A stretch of DNA of 64,000 bases from Rhynchopus sp. YZ270_cl-10 (taxonomy: Eukaryota). The DNA lies in NCBI GenBank assembly GCA_964035575.1, contig OZ037846.1, forward strand, positions 1,054,001 through 1,118,000, given 5' to 3'. Within the stretch, counting starts at the first letter, position 1, and each line of letters begins with the position of its first letter. Made by a program: the position numbers and the translations under genes. Positions 9,587-60,711 of the stretch are shown in pieces. The notes below the pieces were generated by a model, which did not search any database, was not told the DNA's origin, and saw only the letters and a program-made list of their open reading frames with translations.

Positions 9587-13696
<4,110 letters not shown>

Positions 13697-19392: not shown

Positions 19393-21123
19393 ATGGGCTG
19401 TCTGGATGATGTGCTGTCCTTGGACGGGACACTGGATAAGAGAAGCACGCAGAAGCGCACGTTGTTCTTCGTCATGAACTTGTCGGGGCTGTTTCTGCAG
19501 ACGGCGGCAGCGATTCAGACGTGGGCAGACCCGCGTGGCCGCTACATCTATTGCGTAGTGAGTGCACTCACGAGTTGTCTGTCGCTCGCTGCCGTCGTGC
19601 AGGTACTGCGACGCTGCCAGCTGACCCCATTGCGGTTGGTATTCTTCGGCTACGCGTACTGCCTCTCCATCCTGTCTAGCGACCTCACAGCGCGCACTGC
19701 AGGGAACAACGCTTGGCCCATCCTCGTTGTGGTGGTGGACTACCTGCTTGTGATGGAGGTGCCCACGTGCTACAGTGTAGGCGTCGTGTGCGTAGCGTCG
19801 CTGTACTTCGTCGTTATGACCGTCGAGGAAGCCTTCAGGTTTGGCATCCTCGACATGCCAGGTCTCATGCCGCAGGAGGAGAGGGCCATCTACATGTTAG
19901 ATCCGGTAAGCTGCACTGATCTGCCCTGCGCGCGCAACACAGTGAGTTACCAGCTCGTGGCCGTGATGGTGTTTGTGACAGACTTTGTGCTTACAAGAAG
20001 CTTTGCGCGTGGTCTCCTGAAGGAGCAAGAGTCAATGGAGCGGACGATCAACGTTGTGCAGGAGATTGCGTCGTTGCTGGCTGGCTACGACGTGGAGCAG
20101 GTGGCGGAGCTGTTGAAGGTGCATGGGGGTGACCTGCCTGAGGGGATGACAGAGGCACTTCGGAGACTGGAGGAGAACCTGCGTGTGTACAAGGCGTACC
20201 TCCCGAAGACGTGTCTGCCGTTTGCGACTGAAAGAGACGCTGAGCAATCGTTCTCGGAATCCATGAGCGCAGGGGACGAGGCTCCAGACTCTATCGAAAG
20301 GTCAGCATCTTCAGCTCTTTCTGCGGTGCTGTTCCAGACTGTGCATCTCCAACAGTTAGGCCTCTTGTCTGCGAAGGTAACGCTGCTGACAGTGAACGTG
20401 AAGGACACACTGATCCGCTTGGTGGAAGACAGTGCATGTTTCTCGGACCTGTTCACAACTCTTCTTCTGAAGACGTTGCAGGGAACAGAGACAAGACGTG
20501 GGATGGTGGACGTGTTCATCGGTGACAGGATCCACTGCTCGTTCAACGCGTCGAAGCAGTGTGCGTCGCACGCAACCTCAGCACTGCACACAGCCACCCT
20601 GCTCATCAGAGGTGGTGTCACATCGTACGCGAACATGGGTGTTGCAACGGGAACATTGCTGCGTGGTGACATGGGTTGTGAGGTGATGCGTCGGTTCAGC
20701 ATGGTGGGGGAGCTTGTGCGTGATGTGAACGGGCTGGAACGTGTGGGGCGTATGCTGGGGTGTGATGTGGTGTGCAACAGGATGTGCTTCAGCGATGCTG
20801 AGTGCGAACACCAGCTGCGTCTGCTTCCGTGCAAGGTGGAGGTTGCCTCTGGCTGTGAGGCACAGGTTGTGGCGGAACTGATTGCGAAACAAGAGAACAC
20901 AGCGGAAACAGGAGACGAATGGATGTACATGATTGGTGGGAAGAAGGACTGGGACGAGTACAACAATGCCGTGCGTGGGTATCTGCGTGGTGAGCAGTCT
21001 GACCTTGACGTTGCTATGGCATGGTCAGCTGCGGGAGGGGTTGGCACACCAGCACATGCAGTTCCTTCTGGGACGTGCCGTGTTGTGTGTTGCTATATTG
21101 CAAAGCCATCTGCAGCACTGTAA
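19393..21123 (+). CDS. Type B membrane pseudo-cyclase, 576 aa
   Basis: Paralog of 2447..4165 with the same degenerate motifs. Confidence 0.85.
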   Translation: MGCLDDVLSLDGTLDKRSTQKRTLFFVMNLSGLFLQTAAAIQTWADPRGRYIYCVVSALTSCLSLAAVVQVLRRCQLTPLRLVFFGYAYCLSILSSDLTARTAGNNAWPILVVVVDYLLVMEVPTCYSVGVVCVASLYFVVMTVEEAFRFGILDMPGLMPQEERAIYMLDPVSCTDLPCARNTVSYQLVAVMVFVTDFVLTRSFARGLLKEQESMERTINVVQEIASLLAGYDVEQVAELLKVHGGDLPEGMTEALRRLEENLRVYKAYLPKTCLPFATERDAEQSFSESMSAGDEAPDSIERSASSALSAVLFQTVHLQQLGLLSAKVTLLTVNVKDTLIRLVEDSACFSDLFTTLLLKTLQGTETRRGMVDVFIGDRIHCSFNASKQCASHATSALHTATLLIRGGVTSYANMGVATGTLLRGDMGCEVMRRFSMVGELVRDVNGLERVGRMLGCDVVCNRMCFSDAECEHQLRLLPCKVEVASGCEAQVVAELIAKQENTAETGDEWMYMIGGKKDWDEYNNAVRGYLRGEQSDLDVAMAWSAAGGVGTPAHAVPSGTCRVVCCYIAKPSAAL

Positions 21124-21603: not shown

Positions 21604-23694
21604 ATGGGCTGTCTGGATGCTGCGCTGTCGCTGGACGGGACACTGGACAAGAAGAGTACGCAGAAGCGGACGTTGTTCCTCACCGTGAACGTGGCAGCGT
21701 TTCTTTTACTTTTGGCAGGGCCTGGGCTGTCATTAACGGCTCTGAATGGTCGTTATTGGTACTGTGTGGCGAGCGTGTTGGCGTTCTGCATGTCGCTGTG
21801 TGGAATAGCAACGGTGCTGTGCAGGTGCAAACTGACCACAAGCATCATTGTGTCTCTTGCCTACGCCTACAGTATGGCTATCCTGGTCACTGACTTCACA
21901 GCCCGTGCTGCAAGTACCACTGCATGGCCTGTTCTCGTTGTGGTGGTGGACTTCCTGCTTGTGATGGCAGTGCCCGCACCATACAGCATGTGGTTAGTGT
22001 GCGTCACAGTGCTGTACTTCGTTGTCATATCTGTTGAGGAAGCCTTCAGGTTTGGCCTGCTTGACATACCTGGTATCATGCCGCAGGAGGAGAGGGCTGC
22101 CTACATGGCTGAGGCGTACCAGTGTACGAAGCTGCCCTGTCCTAGCAACACGGCAGGTTTCCAAACTATCGCTGTAATGGTGTTCGTAACAGACTTCATC
22201 GTTACACGAGGCTTTGCACGTGGTCTCCTGAAGGAGCAAGAGTCAATGGAGCGGACGATCAACGTTGTGCAGGAGATTGCGTCGTTGCTGGCTGGCTACG
22301 ACGTGGAGCAGGTGGCGGAGCTGTTGAAGGTGCATGAGGGTGACCTGCCTGAGGGGATGACAGAGGCACTGCGTAACTTGGAGGAGAACCTGCGGAAGTA
22401 CCGTCCCTACCTCCCTGCTGCGCTGTTTGAGGCTGAGGTGGATGAGGGCGGTGTGCAGCAGCCGACTGTGGCACCGCCTGGGCTTGTCAGCGAGACAGCT
22501 ACACTTGTGTTCACAGACATCCGTGCTTCAACACAGATCTGGGAGAACGCACCTGAGGGGATGCGTGCTGGACTGCAGATCCACAACGCTGTGGTGCGTG
22601 ATGTGATGCGGATGTGCGGTGGGTACGAGGTGAAGACCATTGGCGACGCATTCATGATTGCCTTTGCATCCACTTGCGACGGTGTGGCGTTTGGGTTGCG
22701 TGTGCAGGAACGTCTGTTTGAAGCAGACTGGCCTGTGTCTCTGCTTGAGGATGCACCAATCTGCTCTCGGCAGGGGTCGCTGTGGGGTGGTCTGACTGTG
22801 CGCATTGGTGTGAACACTGGCCCTGTGACTGTGGAGCAGAACACACTGACGGGACGGACAGACTATCTTGGACACACAGTGAACGTTGCTGCACGCCTTG
22901 AGAGCACATGCACACCTGGTGCTGTGGCTTTGCCCTCTGACCTGTGGACGTCTGTCTCTGGATTATGCAGTGCTGTTGCTGGTGTGCCAGAGGCAGTTCA
23001 CTTGAAGGGTGTGGCAGACAGCATGTTGGTGTGCTGTGTGTGGCCTGTCTCGCTTGGGGGACGAAAGGGCACGCCACTGCGTGAATTTGCTTCAGCAGAA
23101 AAGTCTCTGACCGATTCGGCGAGCCTGTTTTCAACTATGTCTTCTGAGGATTCGTACCGGGCATTGGCACACCCTACCAGGCAGGTCTCCGGCACTGTGG
23201 GAGTTGCACAGCTTGCAGTGGGTGACGTGGTGCACAACACAGCTTTTGACCACATGAGCTGCAGGTTGACGACACTGACGATCACACTGGAGCAGAGTGG
23301 AGGGAGTCTGGTGACGCTGCTTGGGAACTGTGTGTGTGTTGGGTGGAACGTGTCGCGATCTGCACCTGCACACATGGAGAACGCGATACGGTTTGTGCAG
23401 CGCATGTCTGTGAAGTCTGCACTGAACGGGGCTGGTCTTGCAAGCGGTCCTGTGCAGCACGGGGATGTTGGTGCACGGAGCCAGCGCTTTGTGACTGTGA
23501 TGGGGGATGTTGTGCGTCGGAGTTGGGCGCTGTGCGAGGAGGCTGTGCGTGACGGGGTTGTGTGTCTGTACGAGCCTCCTGAAGGGACAACACTGCCGTC
23601 TGCACTTGAAGACGTTCTTGTCCGGCACAAGGGTTGTTACCGTGTCCTTGAGGTACAGGAGAACTGGGGCACGATCGATGTGTTGCAGTCTTAA
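21604..23694 (+). CDS. Type A multi-pass membrane adenylate cyclase (class III), 696 aa, with a degenerate second cyclase domain
   Basis: LVFTDIRAST, YEVKTIGDAFMIAF, VRIGVNTG, RTDYLGHTVNVAARLES: both metal Asp, the ATP-specifying Lys/Asp and the Asn/Arg are present. Confidence 0.92.
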   Translation: MGCLDAALSLDGTLDKKSTQKRTLFLTVNVAAFLLLLAGPGLSLTALNGRYWYCVASVLAFCMSLCGIATVLCRCKLTTSIIVSLAYAYSMAILVTDFTARAASTTAWPVLVVVVDFLLVMAVPAPYSMWLVCVTVLYFVVISVEEAFRFGLLDIPGIMPQEERAAYMAEAYQCTKLPCPSNTAGFQTIAVMVFVTDFIVTRGFARGLLKEQESMERTINVVQEIASLLAGYDVEQVAELLKVHEGDLPEGMTEALRNLEENLRKYRPYLPAALFEAEVDEGGVQQPTVAPPGLVSETATLVFTDIRASTQIWENAPEGMRAGLQIHNAVVRDVMRMCGGYEVKTIGDAFMIAFASTCDGVAFGLRVQERLFEADWPVSLLEDAPICSRQGSLWGGLTVRIGVNTGPVTVEQNTLTGRTDYLGHTVNVAARLESTCTPGAVALPSDLWTSVSGLCSAVAGVPEAVHLKGVADSMLVCCVWPVSLGGRKGTPLREFASAEKSLTDSASLFSTMSSEDSYRALAHPTRQVSGTVGVAQLAVGDVVHNTAFDHMSCRLTTLTITLEQSGGSLVTLLGNCVCVGWNVSRSAPAHMENAIRFVQRMSVKSALNGAGLASGPVQHGDVGARSQRFVTVMGDVVRRSWALCEEAVRDGVVCLYEPPEGTTLPSALEDVLVRHKGCYRVLEVQENWGTIDVLQS

Positions 23695-26463
23695 TTTGTT
23701 GCAAAAATATATCTGTGGCAGCGAATTGTGGGGAAAATGCGTGCGATATTTTTGATGGTGTCTTGTTTGAATTCCCGACCTTGAGGTTTTGTGATTGGTG
23801 CGCTGTTTTTTTGAGAAGTGCGGTTATTAATGCGCTGCTGACTTTCACTCACCACGTCCCCCTATTCCGACACCCCAAATGAGTCACTCCCCCCCGGGTG
23901 GACTCCACCGTGTACCTGTGTGTGACCATACCCCAGATGGTCTGAAGAGTGATACGAGCATATTCTCCAGGTACAATATATACCCGGAGAATCCATTGGA
24001 GCAAGAATTTTGCACTTTGGAGCACCACAGATTACATGTTGCATGAGCACTGTGAATTGTTATGTCGAATAGCCTCAAGGTTCCGCACGTCGGTTGGTCA
24101 TGGATTCAAGTCACAAAGCAACAGAAAAAGTGGATTCATCCTCGGGTGTCTACACACAACCAGGTTTTCAAAAAAAAACAAAAAAGTAAACACATTTCTT
24201 AAAAAAGGAGTTTCAGGAAATCGTTCCCTTTTACCAGGGTCTCTTTTTCTTTCCAATCACCTTCGCAACATTAGTGCCACTTCTGTCGCTCTTATAAGAT
24301 CTTGTTACTTTCATTTCCTGCAAACAAGCAAAATGGGATGGCGACATCATCCCCTCACAACCGTCTTTTCTGGCATCGCAACCTAACCGTTCGGCCAGCC
24401 TCATCATAGGAGTGTCGTGTGTGATCTCCGCGCAGCCGGCAACTTGCTTCACGAAGCTTAAAATGTTTGCACGTGTCTGTGCCGCAGGGTGTCCCCGTTA
24501 CTGACGTCAGTTCTTAGGTGTTTTTTTTTTTTATGTCAACCCAGTGTTTCCCAGCATCTCACCTAACTCTGAAAATAGGTGAGATTTTGCGGTTTTGCGG
24601 GTTTTTGTATAGGTGTGGCGAGCCCGGGCGCGCTTCGCGCGCCCGGGTCCCCACCTTAGCTCAAGTTGGGGGCCTCCGGCGGAATGTGAGAATTTCTCGG
24701 AGTTCGGCACTTCATTGATATTTGCACCAGGCACACGTGGTACACGAATTATCAGTAACCTCAGTACATTTACAAAATAAACGGCAGTCATGGCAGGCAT
24801 GGCACCCAAGCGAAGCCACGGTACGCAACATTTCTAATAATTGTTGACATAAATGTCACTGTCGTTGGAAGATTGGGGGGTCAGCTTGTTTTTGTGCCCA
24901 AAATTTCTCAGCACTGCCGACCAGGGACATTGGGAACATAGGGATTTTTGCGGAGCAAAAAAAAATCAAACAAATGGCGCCGCAGGCGAAAAAAAATTAG
25001 GGTACAGTGTAAAAATCTATCTTTTTTACAGCACATAGTCACACACCTAACCCTTTTTTGCGGAGCAAAAAAGGGAAAATGGCGCCGCAGGCAAAAAAAA
25101 ATTGAGGTACAGCCTGGATGGTGCGGTCAGCAACCCAGTTCCCCATGGTACTCCCGTGGTTCAACCATGATTTTTTTTTTTTTTTTTTCCCCTGCAGGTG
25201 AGATTTCTCACCTCACTTTTTTTTTTTTTTTTTTTTTTTTTGTGAGATTTCTCACCCCAAAATCTCACCGTGGGAAACACTGTGTCAACCACAAAATGGA
25301 TGTAGGACTGCATGGTTGGGTGTCCACCCAGGTAGAGCCGGTCATACCAAGGTACACTCACGAGGTCTTTGTATTTCAAGTCAACTTTTTTTACGTACAA
25401 CCTTAGAACCGGTATGCAGACACTGCTAACAGAGGTTTGTTCCTGCGTAGTGTGCGTGCAACTTCCGTTGCAGGCACATGCATGCGACCCTTTTCTGCCC
25501 TCGATTTTCACCCCCAATAATGCTTGTGGAAAATTTTACTGGTTTGAAAAATTGCATCGCCCCCCTTCATCGAAACCCCTCCACCAGCCAGAGAAGAAGG
25601 TCTAGCGGGTGCTTTTACACTGATCGGTCATAAACAATGGGCTGCCTGGATGCTGTGCTGTCGCTGGATGGGACACTGGACAAGAGACAGAGGCAGAAGC
25701 GGACGTTGTTCTTGGTACTCAACATAGCAGGGTTGATTCTGCAGACGCTTGGTTCACTTGAAGCCTATGCAGTGCCACGTGGACGGTACTTCTTTTACAT
25801 TTCGAGTATTATCACCAGCTGTGCGTCTCTGTGTGCTATCGTGCTGGTGCTCTGCAAGTTCAAGGTCACGACGACGTCCATTATGATTCTTGCGTACATC
25901 TACAGCGTATCCACGTTTAGTGCAGACCTCACAGCGCGTGCTGCAGGGAACACTTCATGGCCTGTTCTCGTGCTTGTGGTTGATTTTGTGCTTGTGATGG
26001 AGGTGCCCGCCCACCACAGTATGGGTATCGTCAGTGTGGCAGTAGTCTACTTCGTGATCATGTCTGTGGAAGAGGCGTTCAGGTTCGGCATCCTCGACAT
26101 ACCTGGTATCATGCCGCAGGAGGAGAGGCTTCACTACATGGAAGAGACGTACCAATGTACAGAGCTTCCCTGCCCTAATAACTCAGCGAACTATCAGGTT
26201 GCTGCTGTTATTGTGTTTGTAACTGACTTCATCGCAACGCGAGGCTTCGCGCGTGGTCTCCTGAAGGAGCAGGAGTCAATGCAAACAACGATCAACACCG
26301 TGCAGGAGATTGCGTCGTTGCTGGCTGGCTACGACGTGGAGCAGGTGGCGGAGCTGTTGAAGGCGCATGGGGGTGACCTGCCTGAGGGGATGACAGAGGC
26401 ACTTCGGAGACTGGAGGAGAACCTGCGTGTGTACAAGGCGTACCTCCCGCAGACGTGTCTGCC
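23191..26463 (+). repeat. Segmental duplication copy 2
   Basis: Reads identical to 1..3273. Confidence 0.95.
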
Positions 26464-27373
26464 TTTTGACAACGAGAAAGAGAACGATTATGTGTCCGAG
26501 AGTTCTGCAAGTGGAGGACAGGATTCTGAAGACTCGTTGTCAAGGTCGGGGTCTTCATCTCTTCATGCATCAATGTTTATGCAGACTGCACCGCTTCAAC
26601 AGTTGGGCCTGTCGTCTGCGAAGGTAACGCTGCTGACAGTGAACGTGAAGGACACACTGATCCGCTTGGTGGAAGACAGTGCATGTTTCTCGGACCTGTT
26701 CACAACTCTTCTTCTGAAGACGTTGCAGGGAACAGAGACAAGACGTGGGATGGTGGACGTGTTCATCGGTGACAGGATCCACTGCTCGTTCAACGCGTCA
26801 AAGCAGTGTGCGTCGCACGCAACCTCAGCACTGCACACAGCCACCCTGCTCATCAGAGGTGGTGTCACATCGTACGCGAACATGAGTGTTGCGACTGGGA
26901 AGGTGCTGCGTGGTGACATGGGTTGTGAGGTGATGCGTCGGTTCAGCATGGTGGGGGAGCTTGTGCGTGATGTGAACGGGCTGGAACGTGTGGGGCGTAT
27001 GCTGGGGTGTGATGTGGTGTGCAACAGGATGTGCTTCAGCGATGCTGAGTGCGAACACCAGCTGCGTCTGCTTCCGTGCAAGGTGGAAGTTGCCTCTGGC
27101 TGTGAGGCACAGGTTGTGGCGGAACTGATTGCAAATGAGGAGGAGGAGACAGCGGAAACAGCAGACGAATGGATGTACATGATTGGTGGGAAGAAGGACT
27201 GGGAGGAGTACAACATTGCCGTGCGTGGGTACCTGCGTGGTGAGCAGTCTGACCTTGACGTTGCTATGGCATGGTCAGCTGCGGGAGGGGTTGGCACACC
27301 AGCACACGCAGTTCCTTCTGGGACGTGCCGTGTTGTGTGTTCCTATCTTCGGGATATTGCAGGTCTGCAGTGA
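25637..27373 (+). CDS. Type B membrane pseudo-cyclase, 578 aa
   Basis: N-terminal half identical to the 2447 gene; degenerate cyclase motifs. Confidence 0.85.
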   Translation: MGCLDAVLSLDGTLDKRQRQKRTLFLVLNIAGLILQTLGSLEAYAVPRGRYFFYISSIITSCASLCAIVLVLCKFKVTTTSIMILAYIYSVSTFSADLTARAAGNTSWPVLVLVVDFVLVMEVPAHHSMGIVSVAVVYFVIMSVEEAFRFGILDIPGIMPQEERLHYMEETYQCTELPCPNNSANYQVAAVIVFVTDFIATRGFARGLLKEQESMQTTINTVQEIASLLAGYDVEQVAELLKAHGGDLPEGMTEALRRLEENLRVYKAYLPQTCLPFDNEKENDYVSESSASGGQDSEDSLSRSGSSSLHASMFMQTAPLQQLGLSSAKVTLLTVNVKDTLIRLVEDSACFSDLFTTLLLKTLQGTETRRGMVDVFIGDRIHCSFNASKQCASHATSALHTATLLIRGGVTSYANMSVATGKVLRGDMGCEVMRRFSMVGELVRDVNGLERVGRMLGCDVVCNRMCFSDAECEHQLRLLPCKVEVASGCEAQVVAELIANEEEETAETADEWMYMIGGKKDWEEYNIAVRGYLRGEQSDLDVAMAWSAAGGVGTPAHAVPSGTCRVVCSYLRDIAGLQ

Positions 27374-40341: not shown

Positions 40342-42066
40342 ATGCGCTGTTTGGATGCTGCGCTGACGCTTGACGGGACGTTGAATGTTGTCGACCGACA
40401 GAGGCGGAAAGTATTTTTCCTGCTCAACTTTATTGTGCTTTGTGCAACTGTTGTGTTTGGGCTGAACCAGCTGCGGGACATGCGGGAGCGGTACATTTAC
40501 TTTGTCGCCACAGCGGCTACCTTCGTGACGTCTTTGTTCAGTGTGCTCCTTGTCGTACGCAAGCGTAGGCTCACCACAACGATCATCGTCACTACATCAG
40601 GCATCTCGTGTGTGTGTCTTCTGTTCTATGATCTGACGGGACGTGCTGAATACAAATACGCCTGGCCTATCATGGTATTGGTCATCGACTTCCTGCTTGT
40701 CATGGGTGTCCCCGCACACTACACCACCGCAGTTGTGGCTTGTACACTGGTATACCTGGCTCTCATTACTGCAGAGGAAACCATCCGCTTTGGCATCCTT
40801 GACCTGCCTGGGCTTGTGACTCAAGAGGATCGCCGCGACTACGTGAACGGCATGGGCGACTGCACCAGCCTCCCCTGTACGCAGAGCACCGCAGTGACGC
40901 ACTTTGCTGCGGCCGCAGTTGTCTTTGTGATAGACTTCATCGCAACGCGAGGCTTTGCGCGTGGTCTCCTGAAGGAGCAGGCATCAATGGAGCGGACGAT
41001 CAACGTTGTGCAGGAGATTGCGTCGTTGCTGGCTGGCTACGACGTGGAGCAGGTGGCGGAGCTGTTGAAGGCGCATGAGGGTGACCTGCCTGAGGGGATG
41101 ACAGTTGCACTTCGGAGACTGGAGGAGAACCTGAGGATGTACAAGGCGTACCTCCCGCAGACGTGTCTGCCGTTTGAGAACGAGAAAGAGCGAGTACTCT
41201 CTCTCCTGGAAGGCTCCTTGAGCATGGCGGATCAAAGCACAGAGTCACGTACTTCTCGTTCGGTGTCGATGTCGAGTTCGAATGTCCTGGTGCGCTGCAG
41301 TGTGCGTGCACAGCCACTGGGCCTCTTGTCTGCGAAGGTAACGCTGCTGACAGTGAACGTGAAGGACACACTGAGTCGCTTGGTGGAAGACAGTGCATGT
41401 TTCTCGGACCTGTTCACAACTCTTCTTCTGAAGACGTTGCAGGGAACAGAGACAAGACGTGGGATGGTGGACGTGTTCATCGGTGACAGGATCCACTGCT
41501 CGTTCAACGCGTCAAAGCAGTGTGCGTCGCACGCAGCCTCAGCACTGCACACAGCCACCCTGCTCATCAGAGGTGGTGTCACATCGTACGCGAACGTGGG
41601 TGTTGCGACTGGGAAGGTGCTGCGTGGTGACATGGGTTGTGAGGTGATGCGTCGGTTCAGCATGGTGGGGGAGCTTGTGTGTGATGTGAACGGGCTGGAA
41701 CGTGCGGGGCGTATGCTGGGGTGTGATGTGGTGTGCAACAGGATGTGCTTCAGCGATGCTGAGTGCGAACACCAGCTGCGTCTGCTTCCGTGCAAGGTGG
41801 AGGTTGCCTCTGGCTGTGAGGCACAGGTTGTGGCGGAACTGGTGGTGCTGGAACATGACGCAGTTGCTGTGGCCGACGAATGGATGTACATGATTGGTGG
41901 GAAGAAGGACTGGGAGGAGTACAACATTGCCGTGCGTGGGTACCTGCGTGGTGAGCAGTCTGACCTTGACGTTGCGAAGGCGTGGTCAGCTGCGGGAGGG
42001 GTTGGCACACCAGCACACACAGTTCCTTCCGGGACGTGCCGTGTTGTGTGTTCCTACCTTCGGTGA
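40342..42066 (+). CDS. Type B membrane pseudo-cyclase
   Basis: ATG 40342 (MRCLDAALTLDGTL) matches family starts; degenerate motifs. Confidence 0.85.
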   Translation: MRCLDAALTLDGTLNVVDRQRRKVFFLLNFIVLCATVVFGLNQLRDMRERYIYFVATAATFVTSLFSVLLVVRKRRLTTTIIVTTSGISCVCLLFYDLTGRAEYKYAWPIMVLVIDFLLVMGVPAHYTTAVVACTLVYLALITAEETIRFGILDLPGLVTQEDRRDYVNGMGDCTSLPCTQSTAVTHFAAAAVVFVIDFIATRGFARGLLKEQASMERTINVVQEIASLLAGYDVEQVAELLKAHEGDLPEGMTVALRRLEENLRMYKAYLPQTCLPFENEKERVLSLLEGSLSMADQSTESRTSRSVSMSSSNVLVRCSVRAQPLGLLSAKVTLLTVNVKDTLSRLVEDSACFSDLFTTLLLKTLQGTETRRGMVDVFIGDRIHCSFNASKQCASHAASALHTATLLIRGGVTSYANVGVATGKVLRGDMGCEVMRRFSMVGELVCDVNGLERAGRMLGCDVVCNRMCFSDAECEHQLRLLPCKVEVASGCEAQVVAELVVLEHDAVAVADEWMYMIGGKKDWEEYNIAVRGYLRGEQSDLDVAKAWSAAGGVGTPAHTVPSGTCRVVCSYLR

Positions 42067-43501
42067 TGGTTGGGTGAAACTTACGTTCCGGCTACAATTT
42101 TATTTTCTCTACTTTTGGGGCAAGCAAAAGGGTTAACCATCCCTTGCCACACACGGGGGATGAGCAGTCCTCTGCACCGTGGCCCTACTACGACAGATGG
42201 GCAAGCAGGGGGTATTCTGTTTGCCCGCATCCTGTCTCTTCTGATGTTCTTTCAATAACTATTCTTTATGTAGACTAAGCACGAGAGGCTCAGGCTCATC
42301 TTGCAAAAGTTTTTTATTTTTATTTTTATTTTCTACAGTTCTTTTGGGACGCTTTGCCAAGAGCTTAACGGAATTTCGTATACACAACAGTGAGTGTTTA
42401 CACACCCACACTGAACACCACTAAAAAATAATTGTAAGCCCTACATCCTCGAACTTTTTAAACACAAATGCTTTCACTGGACGCATCCCGTTTCTCTCCC
42501 CCTCCCCTCTATTACCGACGCCCTTTATGGATACGGAGTGCACCTTTGTTATAAAAGGATACCTATTAACTTGATGACGTAAAGTGCACTTTACGTCACT
42601 GAGGGGGGACATGGGGGGACATGCGTCGCTTGCCTTCTTCTTTATGCATTGTGCACACAGTGATGCCTTCAGCTTCGTATTTCAGGTCCGACATCATTTC
42701 TGTTTTGTTTCTGCCACCCTCAACCCTCAGTACCCCAGAGCGATCGTTGCTCTTCTCACCAGTAGTTGTCCTTCCTCAGTCTCCTGCTGGTGTTCGACAA
42801 AACGTTCTCGATTGGTGCCGCGGGAAAACACGGCGCTTGTTTTGGTGGGTTTTCACGAAGCATCCAACATCGTCAGGCGGGGGACGGCCTGCAGTTTCGA
42901 TCCTATGTATATTTCGTGGAGCTTGTTTAACATCGAAAAGAACTTGTCCAGATACTGTACGCTGCCAAGTGGCGGGTTGTGGTGCCTGAATGAGTGGTTT
43001 AGGTAGAGGGCAGGAATGCCCTTCTCGGAGCGTGCTGGGCCGTTTGCACCGAGAAAAGAGCATGAACTCGTTCCATCTTTTGTAGACTGTTTTCGATGTG
43101 AAGCTTTTTGTCGAACTCTGCTCGTACACATCGACCAGGGGCGCTTGTGAATGGGAAACTGGGTAGGGTTGTAGTTGTAGCGCGTGGAAGGGGAACCATA
43201 TACTTTTGCAACTTTTGGGTGGGTTTTAGCCCAGTGGGAGTGGTCAGCCCAAATTGGGCTAAGTCAGCCCAAAGTTTGCCCATTTTTGGTGGGCTAAGTT
43301 AGCCCACGTTTTTTCTGGGTTTTTTTTTCCAAAACCCCAGGATTGGGCTAAGTTTTTTTTAGTTTTTCAGCCCCGGCGGAAACCCTGGTGTTTCTTTTAC
43401 TTATTTCTCTCAACCCCCTCTCGATCACTCCACAACTCTTCACCAAGGGATGTTTGTTTTGAATTTTGTTCAGATCCACAGCAACATAGCAGGGGGAAAG
43501 C

Positions 43502-45583
43502 ATGCGCTGTCTGGATGCGATGCTGTCGATGGACGGGTCACTGGGCAAGAAGGAGACGCAGAAGCGGAAGCTGTTCTTCGTCATCAACGTGGTGCTGCTC
43601 TTTGTGTTGGTGGGGCTTATGTTATTGATGTTTTCTGACGTGCGTGGCAGGTTTTTTTATGTGGTCGGCATCTTATTTGGCTTCGTAACGGTGCTCTTCA
43701 ACTTAAGCATGATCGCGTGCAAACGCAGGTTATCGCCAGCTTTGATACTGGCGGCGTCGTGCAGCTTCTGGGTGTGCACCCTTCTTGTGGACATGAGTTC
43801 GCGCGCGCAACTGAGGAGCACGTGGCCCGCGATTGTGCTTATTGTTGACTTTGTACTTGTGATGGAGGTGCCCGCACACCACAGCACACTTCTTGTCTGT
43901 GTGACCGTGTTGTACCTCATCGTCATATCTGTTGAGGAATCCTTCAGGTTTGGCCTGTTGGACCTCCCCGGTTTAATGCAGGTATCGGATCGTCGTAGCT
44001 ACGCGGATGAGATGACTCAATGCGCAGACATCCCCTGTGCACGGAACACCACCCCAGCCCTGCTTGCCGCGCTCATGGTGTTTGTGGTGGACTTCATCGC
44101 AACGCGAGGCTTCGCGCGTGGTCTCCGGAAAGAGCAGGAGTCCATGGAGCGGACGATCAACACCGTGCAGGAGATTGCGTCGTTGCTGGCTGGCTACGAC
44201 GTGGAGCAGGTGGCGGAGCTGTTGAAGGTGCATGGGGGTGACCTGCCTGAGGGGATGACAGAGGCACTGCGTGCATTGGAGGAGAACCTGCGGAAGTACC
44301 GTCCCTACCTCCCTGCTGCGCTGTTTGAGGCTGAGGTGGATGAGGACGGTGTGCAGCAGCCGACTGTGGCACCGCCTGGGCTTGTCAGCGAGACAGCAAC
44401 ACTTGTGTTCACAGACATCCGTGCGTCGACGTCGATCTGGGAGAACGCACCTGAGGGGATGCGTGCTGGACTGCAGATCCACAACGCTGTGGTGCGTGAG
44501 GTGATGCGGATGTGTGGTGGGTACGAGGTGAAGACCATTGGCGACGCATTCATGATGGCCTTTGCATCCACTTGCGACGGTGTGGTGTTTGGGTTGCGTG
44601 TGCAGGAGCGTCTGTTTGAAGCAGACTGGCCTGCATCTCTGCTTGAGGATGCACCAATCTGCTCTCGGCAGGGGTCGCTGTGGGGTGGTCTGACTGTGCG
44701 CATTGGTGTGAACACTGGCCCTGTGACTGTGGAGCAGAACACACTGACGGGACGGACAGACTATCTTGGACACACAGTGAACGTTGCTGCACGCCTTGAG
44801 AGCACATGCACACCTGGTGCTGTGGCTGTGCCCTCTGACCTGTGGACGTCTGGGTGCTGGTCGTGCAGTGCTGTTGTTGGTGTGCCAGAGGCAGTTCACT
44901 TGAAGGGTGTGGCAGACAGCATGTTGGTGTGCTGTGTGTGGCCTGTCTCACTTGGGGGACGGAAGGGCACGCCACTGCGTGAATTTGCTTCAGCAGAAAA
45001 GTCTCTGACCGATTCGGCGAGCCTGTTTTCAACTATGTCTTCTGAGGATTCGTACCGGGCATTGGCACACCCTACCAGGCAGGTCTCCGGCACTGTGGGA
45101 GTTGCACAGCTTGCAGTGGGTGACGTGGTGCACAACACAGCTTTTGACCACATGAGCTGCAGGCTGACGACACTGACGATCACACTGGAGCAGAGTGGAG
45201 GGAGTCTGGTGACGCTGCTTGGGAACTGTGTGTGTGTTGGGTGGAACGTGTCGCGATCTGCACCTGCACACATGGAGAACGCGATACGGTTTGTGCAGCG
45301 CATGTCTGTGAAGTCTGTGCTGAACGGGGCTGGTCTTGCAAGCGGCCCTGTGCAGCACGGGGATGTTGGTGCACGGAGCCGTCGCTTTGTGACTGTGATG
45401 GGGGATGTTGTGCGTCGGAGTTGGGCGCTGTGCGAGGAGGCTGTGCGTGACGAGGTTGTGTGTCTGTACGAGCCTCCTGAAGGGACAACACTGCCGTCTG
45501 CACTTGAAGACGTTCTTGTCCGGCACAAGGGGTCTAACTACAGAGTCGTTGAGTCAGACAACCTAGAACGAGACGTGTTTTAG
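43502..45583 (+). CDS. Type A membrane adenylate cyclase, 693 aa
   Basis: FTDIRAST, EVKTIGDAFM, DYLGHTVNVAARLES intact. Confidence 0.92.
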   Translation: MRCLDAMLSMDGSLGKKETQKRKLFFVINVVLLFVLVGLMLLMFSDVRGRFFYVVGILFGFVTVLFNLSMIACKRRLSPALILAASCSFWVCTLLVDMSSRAQLRSTWPAIVLIVDFVLVMEVPAHHSTLLVCVTVLYLIVISVEESFRFGLLDLPGLMQVSDRRSYADEMTQCADIPCARNTTPALLAALMVFVVDFIATRGFARGLRKEQESMERTINTVQEIASLLAGYDVEQVAELLKVHGGDLPEGMTEALRALEENLRKYRPYLPAALFEAEVDEDGVQQPTVAPPGLVSETATLVFTDIRASTSIWENAPEGMRAGLQIHNAVVREVMRMCGGYEVKTIGDAFMMAFASTCDGVVFGLRVQERLFEADWPASLLEDAPICSRQGSLWGGLTVRIGVNTGPVTVEQNTLTGRTDYLGHTVNVAARLESTCTPGAVAVPSDLWTSGCWSCSAVVGVPEAVHLKGVADSMLVCCVWPVSLGGRKGTPLREFASAEKSLTDSASLFSTMSSEDSYRALAHPTRQVSGTVGVAQLAVGDVVHNTAFDHMSCRLTTLTITLEQSGGSLVTLLGNCVCVGWNVSRSAPAHMENAIRFVQRMSVKSVLNGAGLASGPVQHGDVGARSRRFVTVMGDVVRRSWALCEEAVRDEVVCLYEPPEGTTLPSALEDVLVRHKGSNYRVVESDNLERDVF

Positions 45584-46228
45584 CGAGGCTTTGCTGATGG
45601 AAGGTGCAAGGCGACAAAGACATTGCCCGTGTTCTTGCAGAGCATCTTGTTGCCGTCTCTAACTCCAAGGTAGAGGGCTTCAGGATTCAGTGGTGGCTGC
45701 CCTTCTGTGGCTGTTGTACCGTCATGTTCTAGCTGCCCAAACGAAGAATGAGCAGCAAGGGTAATGATCAAGCTCGTGTACCATAGCTAGGGAGTCACTC
45801 GTATGCTGACCAAATTTGTGTTCTGTGCATGGTTTTTTGTGTGCCGCATATATTAAAGATTTTTCTTTTTTCGGGCATGGCATTTGACAGTCTTGTGATA
45901 TCTTGGGAAATCTTTTTGTATACGAGAAAGACGATTCTCGTGCTGCGGGTACTTCATTTTTGGATTGTGCAGGTCTGAGTGGGGGTAGTCTTTTACAAGC
46001 CTTACCTCTCTCTCGTTGTCTTGTCTCCTCTTGTTTTGTGGCGGGTTTGTGTGACCCACCCCACCCGAGCCTTCCCTTGTTTGTTTGTTTATTTAGTCAC
46101 GGCGTGTCATACTCGTTGTAAAAAGAACCCCCCTATCCCCGTGTACTGCCCACAGTTTCCCAAAATTTGCTGATCGTTCAGCGAAGTCTATTATGTCGAA
46201 TAGAATTCGTAGAATTCTGTAAGCACTG

Positions 46229-46358
46229 CCCTAGGCATACCCCGAAGGCGGTTCGTATTTGCCCTATATTCGGATCCGAATATAGGGCAAATATGGTCCA
46301 GGAATTTGGTATCCGAATAGACGGCGAATTTGAATTCGCCTTCGGGGTATGCCTAGGG
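46229..46358. mobile_element. Palindromic MITE-like insertion
   Basis: 22-bp inverted ends CCCTAGGCATACCCCGAAGGCG / CGCCTTCGGGGTATGCCTAGGG; no TSD seen. Confidence 0.6.
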
Positions 46359-46453
46359 TACGTCCCTCCCTCTCGATCACTCCACAACTCTTCACCAAGG
46401 GATATTTGTTTTGAATTTTGTTCAGATCCACAGCAACATAGCAGGGGGAAAGC

Positions 46454-48190
46454 ATGCGCTGTCTGGATGCGATGCTGTCGATGGACGGGTCACTGGGCAA
46501 GAAGGAGACGCAGAAGCGGAAGCTGTTCTTCGTCATCAACGTGGTGCTGCTCTTTGTGTTGGTGGGGCTTATGTTATTGATGTTTTCTGACGTGCGTGGC
46601 AGGTTTTTTTATGTAGTCGGCATCTTATCTGGCTTCGTAACGGTGATCTTCAACTTAAGCGTGGTTGCGTGCAAACGCAGGCTATCGCCAGTTCTGATCC
46701 TGGCGGTGTCGTGCAGCTTCTGGGTGTGCGCCCTTCTTGTGGACATAAGTTCGCGCGCGCAACTGAAGAGCACGTGGCCCGCGATTGTGCTTATTGTTGA
46801 CTTTGTACTTGTGATGGAGGTGCCCGCACACCACAGCACACTTCTTGTCTGTGTGACCGTGTTGTACCTCATCGTCATATCTGTTGAGGAATCCTTCAGG
46901 TTTGGCCTGTTGGACCTCCCCGGTTTAATGCAGGTATCTGATCGTCGTAGCTACGCGGATGAGATGACTCAATGCGCAGACATCCCCTGTGCACGGAACA
47001 CCACCCCAGCCCTGCTTGCCGCGCTTATGGTGTTTGTGGTGGACTTCATCGCAACGCGAGGCTTTGCTCGTGGTCTCCGGAAGGAGCAGGAGTCCATGGA
47101 GCGGACGATCAACACCGTGCAGGAGATTGCGTCGTTGCTGGCTGGCTACGACGTGGAGCAGGTGGCGGAGCTGTTGAAGGTGCATGGGGGTGACCTGCCT
47201 GAGGGGATGACAGTTGCACTTCGGAGACTGGAGGAGAACCTGCGTGTGTACAAGGCGTACCTCCCAAAGACGTGTCTGCCGTTTGACAATGAGGATGGAG
47301 ACGTGACGCCATCTCGTAGGTCGTCTCGTCGGGAGAGTGCAATGACAGTAGACGACACCAGCACAGACTCTGCAACACAGTCTGCATCCACAAACTCCGC
47401 ACCAGTTCCCCACTCTCCCTCGAAGCGTGTGCAACGGTTAGGCCTCACGCCTGCGAAGGCAACGCTGCTGACACTGAACGTGAAGGACACACTGTGCCGC
47501 TTGGCGGACGATGTACCACAATTCTCGGAACTGTTTGCAACTCTTCTTCTGAAGACGTTGCAGGGAACAGAGACAAGACGTGGGATGGTGGACGTGTTCA
47601 TCGGGGACAGGATCCACTGCTCGTTCAACGCGTCAAAGCAGTGCGCGTCGCACGCAACGTCAGCACTGCACACAGCCACCCTGCTCATCAGAGGTGGTGT
47701 CACATCGTACGCGAACATGGGTGTTGCAACAGGAACATTGCTGCGTGGTGACATGGGTTGTGAGGTGATGCGTCGGTTCAGCATGGTGGGGGAGCTTGTG
47801 CGTGATGTGAACGGGCTGGAACGTGTGGGGCGTATGCTGGGGTGTGATGTGGTGTGCAACAGGATGTGCTTCAGCGATGCTGAGTGCGAACACCAGCTGC
47901 GTCTGCTTCCGTGCAAGGTGGAGCTTGCCTCTGGCTGTGAGGGACAGGTTGTGGCGGAACTGGTGGTGAATGAGGAGGAGGAGACAGCGGAAGAAGCAGA
48001 CGAATGGATGTACATGATTGGTGGGAAAAAGGACTGGGAGGAGTACAACATTGCCGTGCGTGGGTACCTGCGTGGTGAAAAATCTGACCTTGACGTTGCG
48101 AAGGCGTGGTCAGCTGCGGGAGGGGTTGGCACACCAGCACACACAGTTCCTTCCGGGACGTTCCGTGTTGTGTGTTCCTATCTTCGGTGA
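46454..48190 (+). CDS. Type B membrane pseudo-cyclase, 578 aa, with an N-terminal module nearly identical to the 43502 gene
   Basis: First ~250 aa match the 43502 gene; type B C-terminus. Confidence 0.87.
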   Translation: MRCLDAMLSMDGSLGKKETQKRKLFFVINVVLLFVLVGLMLLMFSDVRGRFFYVVGILSGFVTVIFNLSVVACKRRLSPVLILAVSCSFWVCALLVDISSRAQLKSTWPAIVLIVDFVLVMEVPAHHSTLLVCVTVLYLIVISVEESFRFGLLDLPGLMQVSDRRSYADEMTQCADIPCARNTTPALLAALMVFVVDFIATRGFARGLRKEQESMERTINTVQEIASLLAGYDVEQVAELLKVHGGDLPEGMTVALRRLEENLRVYKAYLPKTCLPFDNEDGDVTPSRRSSRRESAMTVDDTSTDSATQSASTNSAPVPHSPSKRVQRLGLTPAKATLLTLNVKDTLCRLADDVPQFSELFATLLLKTLQGTETRRGMVDVFIGDRIHCSFNASKQCASHATSALHTATLLIRGGVTSYANMGVATGTLLRGDMGCEVMRRFSMVGELVRDVNGLERVGRMLGCDVVCNRMCFSDAECEHQLRLLPCKVELASGCEGQVVAELVVNEEEETAEEADEWMYMIGGKKDWEEYNIAVRGYLRGEKSDLDVAKAWSAAGGVGTPAHTVPSGTFRVVCSYLR

Positions 48191-49430: not shown

Positions 49431-51110
49431 ATGCGCTGTCTGTCGCAGGACGGGACACTGGACGCTCGTGGAAGGCAGAAGCGGACGTTGTTCTTCGTGA
49501 TGTGTCTTGTGACGACCATTGTATCCCTTGGGATGTTTGTACAGATGCGGAGGACCCAGCCTGACTCGTTCGCGATGCTGGGGGCCACAGTGAGCACAGC
49601 ATTCGTAAGTGTGTTCGCACTGATCTGGTTGATGTGTAAGCGCGACCTTACGACACAGCTTGTCTTGTTCGCCGCCATGGGGGGCTACTTGTCTGTGATG
49701 CTGTCCGACGTTGTCTCTCGCACCGTAGGTAGCAGCGCGTGGCCGCAGTTCGTCCTCGTCATCGACGTGCTCCTTGTGATGGAGGTGCCCGCACACCACA
49801 GCATGGGTGTCGTCTGCGTCACAGTAGTGTACCTCGTAGTCATGTCGCTAGAGGAGGGGTTCAGGTTTGGCATCCTCGACATACCTGGTATCATGCCGCA
49901 GGAGGAGAGGCAGAAGTACATTGTTGACCTGCTCAGCTGCGACGTGCTGCCATGTGCACAGAACACGATTCCCATTACCCTGACTGCGCTCATGGTGTTC
50001 GTGGTGGACTTCATCGCAACGCGAGGCTTTGCGCGTGGTCTCCTGAAGGAGCGAGAATCCATGGAGCGGACGATCAACACCGTGCAAGAAATTGCAGCGC
50101 TTCTGGCTGGCTACGACGTGGAGCAGGTGGCGGAGCTGTTGAAGGTGCATGGGGGTGACCTGCCTGAGGGGATGACAGAGGCACTGCGTAACTTGGAGGA
50201 GAACCTGAGGATGTACAAGGCGTACCTCCCGAAGACGTGTCTGCCGTTTGAGAACGAGAAGAGCCTCTCACTCAGTTCCGTGGAGAGTGCGTCCGAAATG
50301 GGTTCATCGGCAATGAGTTGCTCCTTGCGCTTTCGTCGCTCTTCTCTTCGAGCTCAGCAGTTGGGCCTCTCGTCTGTGAAAGGAACGCTGCTGGCAGTGA
50401 ACGTGAAGGACACACTGAGTCGCTTGGTGGAAGACAGTGCATGTTTCTCGGACCTGTTCACAACTCTTCTTCTGCAGACGTTGCAGGGAACAGAGACAAG
50501 ACGTGGGATGGTGGACGTGTTCATCGGTGACAGGATCCACTGCTCGTTCAACGCGTCGAAGCAGTGTGCGTCGCACGCAACCTCAGCACTGCACACAGCC
50601 ACCCTGCTCATCAGAGGTGGTGTCACGTCGTACGCGAACATGGGTGTTGCAACAGGAACAGTGCTGCGTGGTGACATGGGTTGTGAGGTGATGCGTCGGT
50701 TCAGCATGGTGGGGGAGCTTGTGCGTGATGTGAACGGTCTGGAACGTGTGGGGCGTATGCTGGGGTGTGATGTGGTGTGCAACAGGATGTGCTTCAGCGA
50801 TGCTGAGTGCGAACACCAGCTGCGTCTGCTTCCGTGCAAGGTGGAGGTTGCTTCTGGCTGTGAGGCACAGGTTGTGGCGGAACTGATTGCGAAACAAGAG
50901 AACACAGCGGAAACAGGAGACGAATGGATGTACATGATTGGTGGGAAGAAGGACTGGGATGAGTACAACACAGTGGTGCGTGGGTACCTGCTTGATGAAA
51001 AAGCTGCCCTTGATGTTGCGAAGGCGTGGTCAGCTGCGGGAGGGGTTGGCACACCAGCACACGCAGTTCCTTCCGGGACGTGCCGTGTTGTGTGTTCCTA
51101 CCTTCGGTGA
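49431..51110 (+). CDS. Type B membrane pseudo-cyclase, 559 aa
   Basis: Family paralog. Confidence 0.85.
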   Translation: MRCLSQDGTLDARGRQKRTLFFVMCLVTTIVSLGMFVQMRRTQPDSFAMLGATVSTAFVSVFALIWLMCKRDLTTQLVLFAAMGGYLSVMLSDVVSRTVGSSAWPQFVLVIDVLLVMEVPAHHSMGVVCVTVVYLVVMSLEEGFRFGILDIPGIMPQEERQKYIVDLLSCDVLPCAQNTIPITLTALMVFVVDFIATRGFARGLLKERESMERTINTVQEIAALLAGYDVEQVAELLKVHGGDLPEGMTEALRNLEENLRMYKAYLPKTCLPFENEKSLSLSSVESASEMGSSAMSCSLRFRRSSLRAQQLGLSSVKGTLLAVNVKDTLSRLVEDSACFSDLFTTLLLQTLQGTETRRGMVDVFIGDRIHCSFNASKQCASHATSALHTATLLIRGGVTSYANMGVATGTVLRGDMGCEVMRRFSMVGELVRDVNGLERVGRMLGCDVVCNRMCFSDAECEHQLRLLPCKVEVASGCEAQVVAELIAKQENTAETGDEWMYMIGGKKDWDEYNTVVRGYLLDEKAALDVAKAWSAAGGVGTPAHAVPSGTCRVVCSYLR

Positions 51111-58614: not shown

Positions 58615-60711
58615 ATGCACATCCTGCGCTGTCTAGAGGGTGTGCTGTCGTTGGACGGGACACTGGATGCTAGCACGTCAGAAGCGGACGTTGTTTTTTG
58701 TAATAAATGTTGTGGGTCTGGTGTCCCAGATAGTAGGTCTTTCGACGTGGGCGGATCCTCAAGGCCGGTATATTCAGTGCGCCTCTAACGCTGTGACAGT
58801 TGCCACAATGCTTGCCGCTGTTGTACTGATCCTGTGCAGATGCAAGCTGACCACACACAACATCGTGTTTCTTGCCTACCTGTTGGTACTCTCAATACTC
58901 GGCATAGACATGACCTCACGTGCCAACGGGAATACCATGTGGCCGCTGCTCGTGCTCATCGTTGACATCCTCCTTGTGATGGAGGTGCCCGCACGCTACA
59001 GCATGGGTGTCGTCTGCTTTGCGCTGGTGTACTTCTTTGTGATGTCGCTAGAGGAAGCCTTCAGGTTTGGCATCCTCGACATACCTGGTATCATGCCGCA
59101 GGAGGAGAGGCACGATCACATGGCAGAGAGGATCAACTGCACAAACCTTCCCTGTCCTGATAAAGAGGCATTTATCTACCAGATTTATGCTGGCTTGGTG
59201 TTCGTAACAGACTTTGTCGCAACGCGAGGCTTTGCGCGTGGTCTCCTGAAGGAGAAGGCATCAATGGAACGGACGATCAACACCGTGCAGGAGATTGCGT
59301 CGTTGCTGGCTGGCTACGACGTGGAGCAGGTGGCGGAGCTGTTGAAGGTGCATGAGGGTGACCTACCTGAGGGGATGACAGAGGCACTGCGTGCATTGGA
59401 GGAGAACCTGCGTGTGTACAAGGCGTACCTCCCTGCTGCGCTGTTTGAGGCTGAGGTGGATGAGGACGGTGTGCAGCAGCCGACTGTGGCACCGCCTGGG
59501 CTTGTCAGCGAGACAGCAACAATTGTGTTCACAGACATCCGTGCTTCAACACAGATCTGGGAGATTGCACCTGAGGGGATGCGTGCTGGACTGCAGATCC
59601 ACAACGCTGTGATGCGTGAGGTGATGCGGATGTGTGGTGGGTACGAGGTGAAGACCATTGGCGACGCATTCATGATTGCCTTTGCATCCACTTGCGACGG
59701 TGTGGCGTTTGGGTTGCGTGTGCAGGAGCGTCTGTTTGAAGCAGACTGGCCTGCGTCTCTGCTTGAGGATGCACCAATCTGCTCTCGGCAGGGGTCGCTG
59801 TGGGGTGGTCTGACTGTGCGCATTGGTGTGAACACTGGCCCTGTGACTGTGGAGTTGAACACACTGACGGGACGGACAGACTATCTTGGACACACAGTGA
59901 ACGTTGCTGCACGCCTTGAGAGCACATGCCCACCTGGTGCTGTGGCTGTGCCCTCTGACCTGTGGACGTCTGTCTCTGGGTCGTGCAGTGCTGTTGCTGG
60001 TGTGCCAGAGGCAGTTCACTTGAAGGGTGTGGCAGACAGCACGTTGGTGTGCTGTGTGTGGCCTGTCTCACTTGGGGGACGAATGGAGTCACTACTTGGT
60101 GAGTCCTTTTCACATGAGAAGCGGAAAATGACTGCTTCCACATGTCATTCGTATGCTTCATCCGTGGACATGCTCTCTACGTCGCTGTTGGCACACTCGC
60201 ACCGTCAGGTCTCCGGCACTGTGGGAGTTGCACAGCTTGCAGTGAGCGACGTGGAACACTACACAGCTTTTGACGACATGAGTTCAAGACTGACGACACT
60301 GACGATCACACTGGAGCAGAGTGGAGGGAGTCTGGTGACGCTGCTTGGGAACTGTGTGTGTGTTGGGTGGAACGTGTCGCGTTCTGCACCTGCACACATG
60401 GAGAACGCGATACGGTTTGTGCAGCGCATGTCCGCGAAGTCTGCACTGAACGGGGCTGGTCTTGCAAGCGCCCTGTGCAGCACGGGGATGTTGGTGCACG
60501 GAGCCGTCGCTTTGTGACTGTGATGGGGGAAGGCGTGCGTCGGAGTTGGGCGCTGTGCGAGGAGGCTGTGCGTGACGGGGTTGTGTGTCTGTACGAGCCT
60601 CCTGAAGGTGCACTACTGCCGTCTGTACTTGAAGACGTTCTTGTCCGGCACAAGGGGTCTAACTACAGAGTCGTTGAGTCAGACAACCAAGAACGCGACA
60701 ACGTGTTTTAG
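58615..60711 (+). pseudogene. Type A adenylate cyclase with two frameshifts (~58675 and ~60470)
   Basis: ATG 58615 MHILRCLEGVLSLDGTLD is out of frame with QKRTLFF; GCAAGCGCCCTG vs GCAAGCGGCCCTG in the 43502 paralog; catalytic motifs intact. Confidence 0.75.

Follow-up and report, generated by a model that had tools for sequence, protein, structure and literature searches.

Two adjacent genes of the diplonemid Rhynchopus sp. YZ270_cl-10, here called type A and type B, share a nearly identical six-helix membrane anchor and most of the linker behind it, and then part: type A continues into an intact-looking class III adenylate cyclase, and type B into a pseudo-cyclase domain. They lie in a 64,000-nucleotide stretch of GenBank assembly GCA_964035575.1 (contig OZ037846.1, positions 1,054,001 to 1,118,000, forward strand), called the window below and numbered from its first letter. 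The reading as a whole is that anchor and linker form a shared, copied module, that the two genes were matched by recombination at the linker, and that B pairs with A and damps it; taken together, these parts stand evenly poised between holding and failing. The notable part is the large conserved family of pseudo-cyclase receptors and its interchange with active cyclases, the matched pair itself probably being incidental.

Each type has hundreds of members: searches with about 8,000 scored candidates each yielded at least 415 B-like and at least 454 A-like proteins. Family-wide counts below refer to the best 120 of each type, most of them on contigs of about a megabase; 2 of the 120 type A proteins were dropped from the alignment, leaving 118.

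The duplicated membrane module

Self-comparison of the window by BLAST aligned 43416-44313 with 46368-47265 at 96.1% identity over 898 nt. Near-identity, with 20 differences in 846 nt, ends at 44261 and 47213, and the switch from type A to type B falls at codon 254, within the linker. An earlier note, made from the letters alone, had described two nearly identical stretches followed by divergent C-termini, and this description holds. The features of the module are as follows.

43416..44261, + strand, duplicated module copy 1: 86 nt of upstream sequence, the membrane anchor and most of the linker (self-BLAST; both versions in 4 of 4 runs)
43416..43501, + strand, upstream sequence common to both copies, in which a T-rich tract ends in AG at 43472-43473, a possible spliced-leader acceptor
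43663..43815, + strand, divergent patch, residues 54-105
46368..47213, + strand, duplicated module copy 2 (self-BLAST)
46229..46358, no strand assigned, 130-bp palindromic repeat with 22-nt perfect arms, ending 10 nt 5' of the edge of copy 2 (sequence; high contig depth)

Diplonemids use spliced-leader trans-splicing (PMC10161547). The palindromic repeat is a dispersed one and also has an inner 19-nt palindrome. Within the module, 14 of the 20 differences fall inside the 153 nt of the divergent patch (permutation p ~5e-5), to which all 9 non-synonymous changes between the copies are confined. The ratio of non-synonymous to synonymous substitution rates (dN/dS) of the pair's N-module is 0.28, and the dS of the shared module, 0.056, is at the routine turnover level of the array.

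Contigs from four public sequencing runs (two studies) contain the A and B versions of the single-nucleotide polymorphism (SNP) block at 43663-43815 side by side in every run. The B version comprises 14 SNPs, 13 of which occur in the longest piece from one run. The depths of the two versions were 101/111, 110/98, 79/144 and 232/459, with unique flanks at 99, 90, 85 and 289; each version has about single-copy depth in all four runs, and the shared stretches have about twice the depth of the unique flanks. Because both versions occur in every run and the shared stretches reach this doubled depth, the existence of two module copies is close to certain. These contigs bear on the anchors: the linker lies between anchor and C-module and is multi-copy, so the contigs cannot phase the one to the other, and one of the runs may be the source of the assembly.

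Type A, a cyclase with a dead domain in cis

43502..45583, + strand, type A gene, 693 amino acids: six-helix anchor, HAMP-like linker, intact-looking cyclase domain D1, dead cyclase domain D2
43502..44116, + strand, membrane anchor of A, residues 1-205, six predicted helices (AlphaFold2)
44114..44323, + strand, HAMP-like helical linker of A, residues 205-274; predicted dimer contact and site of the type switch
44384..44956, + strand, D1, intact-looking trypanosome-type class III adenylate cyclase with D305, K344, D348, D420, N427 and R431 (Pfam, 1fx2)
45074..45511, + strand, D2, dead cyclase domain of A (about residues 525-670), related to the B domain

D1 matches PF00211 with an E-value of 6.5e-21 (75.2 bits, cut-off 21.9). 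Its best sequence match is 1fx2 (E 4.4e-21), with 1fx2 and 1fx4 at the top, and its best fold match is again 1fx2/1fx4, the Trypanosoma brucei cyclases GRESAG4.1/4.3 (E 3e-8). All six catalytic residues, namely the two metal Asp, the adenine-specifying Lys and Asp, and the transition-state Asn and Arg, are invariant in the 118 aligned type A proteins. Since all catalytic residues reside in one domain, as in GRESAG4.1/4.3, D1 appears to be of the homodimeric enzyme type. D2, which the earlier note had missed, lacks the second Asp and the Lys, Asp, Asn and Arg of the catalytic set in the type A alignment, and weakly matches the photoactivated cyclase OaPAC (5x4t, E 0.023).

The anchor is predicted with a local confidence score (pLDDT) of mostly 85-98 over residues 1-170 in the AlphaFold2 models of both A and B. 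Searched against 48,161 chains, the anchor of the B model (residues 11-198) best matched Rv1625c of Mycobacterium tuberculosis (7yzi; Z 12.6, root-mean-square deviation (rmsd) 5.0, 193 residues aligned), followed by the mammalian cyclases AC9 (6r3q; Z 12.0, rmsd 4.3, 189 aligned) and AC5 (8sl3; Z 10.3, rmsd 6.8, 213 aligned), all others being at or below 9.8. The three best structural matches are thus all six-transmembrane anchors of cyclases, a likeness that is suggestive but not conclusive, as Z-scores below about 13 do not settle a shared fold for helical bundles. The linker consists of 75 residues and is helical. It has no Pfam match (PF00672) in the window proteins; the counterpart region of the distant relative P0358 hits PF00672 at the cut-off, and the second HAMP helix of P0358 aligns with the window linker. 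Superposition of the A model, of low confidence in this part, on a two-domain soluble cyclase gave only an rmsd of 17-20 Å, with no sign of a C1/C2-like pair of D1 and D2.

Type B, an old pseudoenzyme

46454..48190, + strand, type B gene, 578 amino acids: anchor, linker, Ser-rich spacer, dead cyclase domain, EWMY tail
47432..47938, + strand, B pseudo-cyclase domain, residues 327-495, with N342, V381, D385, S443, R450 and G454
47966..48187, + strand, B-only tail with the EWMY motif at 48002-48013 (conservation)

In type B, N342 replaces the first metal Asp and V381 the base Lys, S443, R450 and G454 stand at the Asp, Asn and Arg positions, and D385 is kept. The same holds throughout the family: the first Asp, the Lys, the base Asp, the Asn and the Arg are missing from all 120 type B proteins, and only the second Asp is retained. 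The earlier note's account of the substituted Asp and the missing Lys and Asn/Arg pair is thereby extended from the window to the family. B very probably lacks cyclase activity, judged from these residues. Other positions are strictly kept, with N342, D380, D385, N392 and H400 invariant in 120 of 120. The EWMY tail, also missed by the earlier note, has W518 and Y520 in all 120 and, among the best 150 distant relatives, in 138 and 136.

The B domain matches D2 in hhalign with a probability of 91% (E 1e-6) and D1 with 0.4%. A tree of 82 domains (56 B, 10 D2, 5 D1 and 11 from other class III cyclases) places B together with D2 at an SH-like approximate likelihood ratio test (SH-aLRT) support of 96, apart from D1 and from the 11 others; D2 is on a long branch of uncertain placement. 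Because the B domain matches and groups with D2 and not with D1, B is not a broken D1, and an origin by decay of D1 is ruled out. The pairing of an active cyclase with a pseudo-cyclase, as the earlier note had it, thus stands as to the residues, with D1 intact-looking and B dead, but B is kin to the dead domain of A rather than a copy of its enzyme; it resembles A minus its enzyme domain.

Kinship of the B domain with cyclases is indicated by several lines of evidence. B itself has no Pfam match, and the domain is missed in all six B copies of the window. Its relatives P0358 and P0288 exceed the PF00211 cut-off, and P0358 aligns with B at E 1e-20. Atlas matches lead to PF00211 clusters at 0.92, and the family profile of B retrieves class III cyclases. 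The best sequence match of B is OaPAC (5x4t), a weak one (E 0.029); the OaPAC catalytic domain, the weak match of both B and D2, is active and has the Asn and Arg pair that is absent from these two. A Foldseek search with the B model gave no match at E <=0.001, and the structural search of that model covered residues 11-198, the anchor, rather than the pseudo-cyclase domain.

The earlier note had raised neutral evolution of type B as a possibility; the window copies show purifying selection instead. Pooled over few and non-independent pairs, the ratio of non-synonymous to synonymous differences (pN/pS) is 0.39 in the B core and 0.25 in its tail, compared with 0.45 in D1 and 0.27 in D2. For the anchor, the dN/dS rows with the broken 58640 gene (36 codons only) and the pooled value were left out. 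With an intact open reading frame (ORF) and purifying selection, a pseudogene is ruled out. By these sequence measures, B is an old pseudoenzyme under selection, conserved among diplonemids.

Family size and spread

The B domain has 696 relatives among representatives at 50% identity. In the best 150 of these, D1 occurs in 0, the anchor in 114, N342 in 119, and EWMY in 121-138 depending on the position. Of 30 relatives looked up, all 14 that carry a name are from diplonemids: Diplonema papillatum, D. japonicum, Rhynchopus euleeides, R. humris, Namystynia karyoxenos, and a transcript labelled 'Hpha', which we take to be Hemistasia. Eleven of the 14 come from transcriptome assemblies, and B-type domains are therefore transcribed in other diplonemids. 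A profile search for longer relatives (871-2485 amino acids only) gave one strong match and 11 class III cyclases of a generic kind, 12 proteins in all, with no named non-diplonemid eukaryote among them, which is weak evidence. For one relative the Atlas lists Heterolobosea clusters, a lead only.

Both outputs also occur behind other sensors. In D. papillatum, P0282 has a B-type domain behind DOMON, cytochrome b561 and cytochrome b5 domains; in D. japonicum, P0358 has it behind HAMP; and in P0166 an A-type cyclase follows a solute-binding domain.

In the window itself, a single intronless family is represented by nine complete or almost complete genes and a 3' fragment, each of them on the + strand; on its contig B outnumbers A by about 3:1 (48 versus 16 clusters). 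Besides the pair, these are as follows.

1..504, + strand, 3' fragment of a type A paralogue, duplicated at 23191-23694 (self-BLAST)
2447..4165, + strand, type B paralogue (self-BLAST)
19393..21123, + strand, type B paralogue (self-BLAST)
21604..23694, + strand, type A paralogue (self-BLAST, Pfam)
25637..27373, + strand, type B paralogue; anchor and linker identical to those at 2447, C-module different
40342..42066, + strand, type B paralogue upstream of the pair (self-BLAST)
49431..51110, + strand, type B paralogue downstream of the pair (self-BLAST)
58615..60711, + strand, type A paralogue interrupted by two frame changes, one near 58660-58680 and one at about 60470; a pseudogene or an assembly error

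Just upstream of the B gene at 49431 lies a 130-nt fragment of large-subunit rRNA (49151-49280, - strand) with very high contig depth.

Probable origin of the match by module shuffling

Module shuffling is the likely origin of the match. Among the window paralogues, anchor dS is 1.0-1.8, saturated or nearly so, whereas that of the B cores is 0.03-0.13 and that of D1 0.05-0.08, so that C-modules are homogenised across old anchors. The anchor tree comprises 225 of 241 rows (16 were dropped, 2 with another sensor and 14 with anchors shorter than 150 amino acids) and needs 24 A/B changes, at least 13 of them forced by starred branches; with shuffled labels the mean is 75. Thus, the types cluster on the anchor tree yet switch repeatedly. 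One starred anchor clade holds 36 B and 0 A, and another 33 A and 0 B. The whole-linker tree needs 6 changes, and the tree of the linker's first 55 residues 19.

Three A/B pairs have anchors of 94-100% identity, and in all three the switch is in the linker. The anchors of the window's pair are 95% identical, against a family median of 37%. The other two pairs are P0171/P0078 (100%) and P0138/P0067 (94%), and location on the same contig is indicated for the first but not for the second. A cross-type anchor match of at least 90% was found for 3 of 112 A and 3 of 113 B, versus same-type matches of at least 80% for 35 A and 52 B. On the window's contig, to which family members were assigned indirectly, anchor matches of at least 70% are cross-type for 1 of 15 A and 1 of 45 B and same-type for 37 of 45 B.

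The earlier note had listed further A-then-B adjacencies at 1/2447 and 21604/25637. The adjacency is present at both, but positions 1-4151 equal 23191-27341 at 98.5% identity (self-BLAST), a single 4.15-kb segmental duplication, and the A and B anchors at 21604/25637 are only 60% identical. As copies of one duplication with such anchors they are not matched pairs, and recurrent matched adjacency in the window is ruled out. Between 2447-4165 and 25637-27373, anchor and linker are identical and spacer and C-module differ; this sequence pattern is a C-module exchange after the duplication. In the pair itself, the clustered differences are as expected from patchy conversion, and the match would have been made at the linker, by recombination or conversion. 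Rather than a dedicated couple of enzyme and inhibitor, the pair is probably one product of the shuffling of sensors and outputs.

A predicted A/B complex and its proposed role

ESMFold2, given residues 196-693 of A and 196-578 of B, scored the complex at 0.66, against 0.00 for the best of three controls. Of 78 solved complexes 51 attain the mark, as do 2 of 108 mismatched pairs (39 of 65 and 2 of 126 for eukaryotes). The modelled combination was A/B alone, run without alignments; the runs share at least 55% of contacts, with a partner pLDDT of at least 65. The predicted interface comprises residues 205-274 on both chains (linker to linker, with symmetric helix contacts) and residues 525-641 of A, in D2, against residues 329-449 of B. 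D1 residues are absent from the predicted interface list, in which unlisted residues are uncertain rather than excluded. The heterodimer suggested in the earlier note is thus favoured by the model, but the predicted contact is one between the two dead domains.

A functional class III cyclase takes two catalytic domains. For trypanosome cyclases, dimerisation of the catalytic domains is required (PMC6027212). An A/A dimer would make cyclic AMP (cAMP) through D1-D1, with D2-D2 acting as a clamp. B would supply both pairing surfaces, the linker and the dead domain, but no D1; since trypanosome-type cyclases need catalytic-domain dimerisation and D1 would be unpaired in A/B, such a dimer would be silent and B a dampener of cAMP output. 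The pairing of D2 with the B domain would act as a built-in dampener. As these surfaces are common to the whole family, B could do without a matching anchor.

Whether B binds and damps A in this way is, going by the model, a question on which the balance is level or tips slightly towards the negative. Several points weigh against the reading given at the outset. Both AlphaFold2 models have low confidence in their cytosolic parts. The pass of the A/B model may stem from likeness to solved HAMP and cyclase dimers and from the near-identical linkers, and an ESMFold2 pass cannot name the family member that binds, as close cousins of a true partner also pass. Conservation in B is no higher at the predicted interface than elsewhere in the domain (0.46 versus 0.42, p 0.21). 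The 3:1 excess of B on the contig would be costly if B were a promiscuous inhibitor, and the invariant EWMY tail, present on B and not on A, points to a function of its own. As to the match, the genome-wide count of matched pairs is an undercount, as it covers the best 120 of at least 415 B-like and the best 120 of at least 454 A-like proteins.

Alternative explanations

The strongest alternative is that B is a stand-alone receptor whose B/B dimers signal without cAMP through the pseudo-cyclase pocket and EWMY, contact with A being incidental; the pair would then wire one sensor to two outputs. This is somewhat unlikely. The best 150 distant relatives, which mostly keep N342, EWMY and the anchor and never have D1, speak for it, as do the 36-member B-only anchor clade, the predominance of same-type anchor matches among the contig's B proteins (37 of 45) over matches to an A (1 of 45), and the occurrence of the domain behind other sensors, such as the two-helix HAMP proteins and the DOMON/cytochrome protein. 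The model, which supports two-surface binding of A and B, speaks against it; A also keeps a related dead domain under purifying selection, which suggests that the domain serves pairing, and B is without known effector. The B excess and the B-only EWMY tail leave room for a cAMP-independent role of B/B dimers, and stand-alone signalling by B and damping of A can both hold at once.

The earlier note had suggested a sensor-matched dead partner that could inhibit or modulate; in this version, the B gene at 46454 would be kept by selection as the dedicated inhibitor or modulator of the A gene at 43502. The high anchor identity of the pair relative to the family median, the two further pairs of this kind, the N-module dN/dS and the passing A/B model favour it, and conversion between the copies is suggested by the long stretches of identity that flank a single divergent patch. 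However, cross-type matches of at least 90% are far rarer than same-type matches of at least 80%, only 1 of 15 A on the window's contig is cross-matched, the module dS is that of ordinary array turnover, and the repeat adjacencies are one duplication with unmatched anchors. The clade of 36 B anchors without any A also speaks against it. A dedicated partnership is improbable.

It is very unlikely that B, alone or as an A/B dimer, is catalytically active through a remodelled site (N342, D380, D385, N392, H400), be it on a different substrate or as a cyclase of low activity. These five residues are invariant in the 120 type B proteins and kept in most of the 150 distant relatives, but base-binding and transition-state positions vary freely among those relatives, and D2 shares the Asn, His, Asp and Arg of the set yet lacks both metal Asp, which fits structural roles. 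Lastly, a chimeric misassembly, raised in the earlier note, is scarcely credible: the linker is common to hundreds of paralogues and short-read contigs fail to phase across it, but both anchor versions are adjacent in all four runs, the shared stretches have nearly doubled depth, and both ORFs are intact while differing at 20 sites.

Comparison with known systems

The closest precedent is from Leishmania, where rac-B1 negatively regulates rac-A (Sanchez et al., 1995, as cited in PMC4413820). As there, a euglenozoan tandem array would have one paralogue negatively regulating an adjacent active cyclase, although binding is here only modelled. Unlike in rac-A/rac-B1, A has a dead domain in cis, and the B domain, which has a tail of its own and exists in hundreds of copies, represents a separate lineage of old age. 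Trypanosomatid receptor adenylate cyclases (RACs) span the membrane once and carry a Venus-flytrap ectodomain (PMC6027212), unlike the six-helix anchor here. Assignment of A to the RAC/ESAG4 type by architecture is accordingly ruled out, since it has a six-helix anchor and no Venus-flytrap ectodomain; its catalytic domain is trypanosome-type. GRESAG4.1/4.3, the closest matches of D1, differ from A in lacking a second, dead cyclase domain and in their sensor architecture.

Mammalian C1 and C2 domains complement each other into one active site (PMC6027212). A pseudo-heterodimer of this kind is ruled out by the residues, as D1 has both halves and D2 and B neither. The apicomplexan protein UGO carries inactive cyclase domains. 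The UGO/guanylate cyclase couple is similar in that a protist cyclase depends on a dedicated partner (PMC6694467; bioRxiv 10.1101/2025.04.01.645218); in these sources it is single-copy and serves assembly or up-regulation, with no shared sensor module and no expanded recombining family. In Euglena, an expanded cyclase family with double domains and HAMP has been described (PMC6366073), with no dead family in that description. No publication on the present cyclase family was found, judged by titles and the starts of abstracts, with subscription papers outside coverage; the word 'cyclase' occurs 0 times in the main text of the D. papillatum genome paper, whose supplements may list the family.

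Other features of the window

Repeats are frequent in the window. A region of about 1.2 kb at 4559-5752 matches its own reverse complement at 96%, and at 8438-13696 a 113-bp unit, repeated 10.6 times, extends into the beginning of a 1369-amino-acid ORF with a long Gln/His tract and no Pfam match. Near-perfect short-unit satellites occur at 6702-6995 (GTGTACA), 16833-17061 (ATACCCAG) and 38990-39125 (TGCAC), and a further satellite at 29680-30892 consists of CTGTA and then GTACTGG (149 copies). Two other genes were recognised: at 32713-35388, a probable surface protein of 891 amino acids, rich in Cys, with PAN domains and with hydrophobic stretches at its ends, and at 61785-63999, a glycoside hydrolase family 92 gene over two frames (an intron or a frameshift).

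Significance

Receptor cyclases are believed to be the means by which Euglenozoa sense their environment, and little is described of what binds and regulates them (PMC7719234); six-transmembrane cyclase anchors have been proposed to be receptors (PMC4821796). The pseudo-cyclase receptor family is about as large as the adjoining active family, and the pair, with one sensor and two outputs, is a natural experiment on six-helix anchors as receptors and on the role of a dead cyclase. Gene replacement works in D. papillatum (PMC10161547), a host of relatives of the B domain. Diplonemids may, in a broader proposal that we regard as rather unlikely, possess a combinatorial receptor library, in which hundreds of diversified six-helix sensors would be re-wired by recombination at a shared linker to either cAMP or an ancient EWMY pseudo-cyclase output, the latter both silencing cyclases by dead-domain pairing and signalling without cAMP. 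If true, such a library would be a major signalling system overlooked by standard domain annotation.

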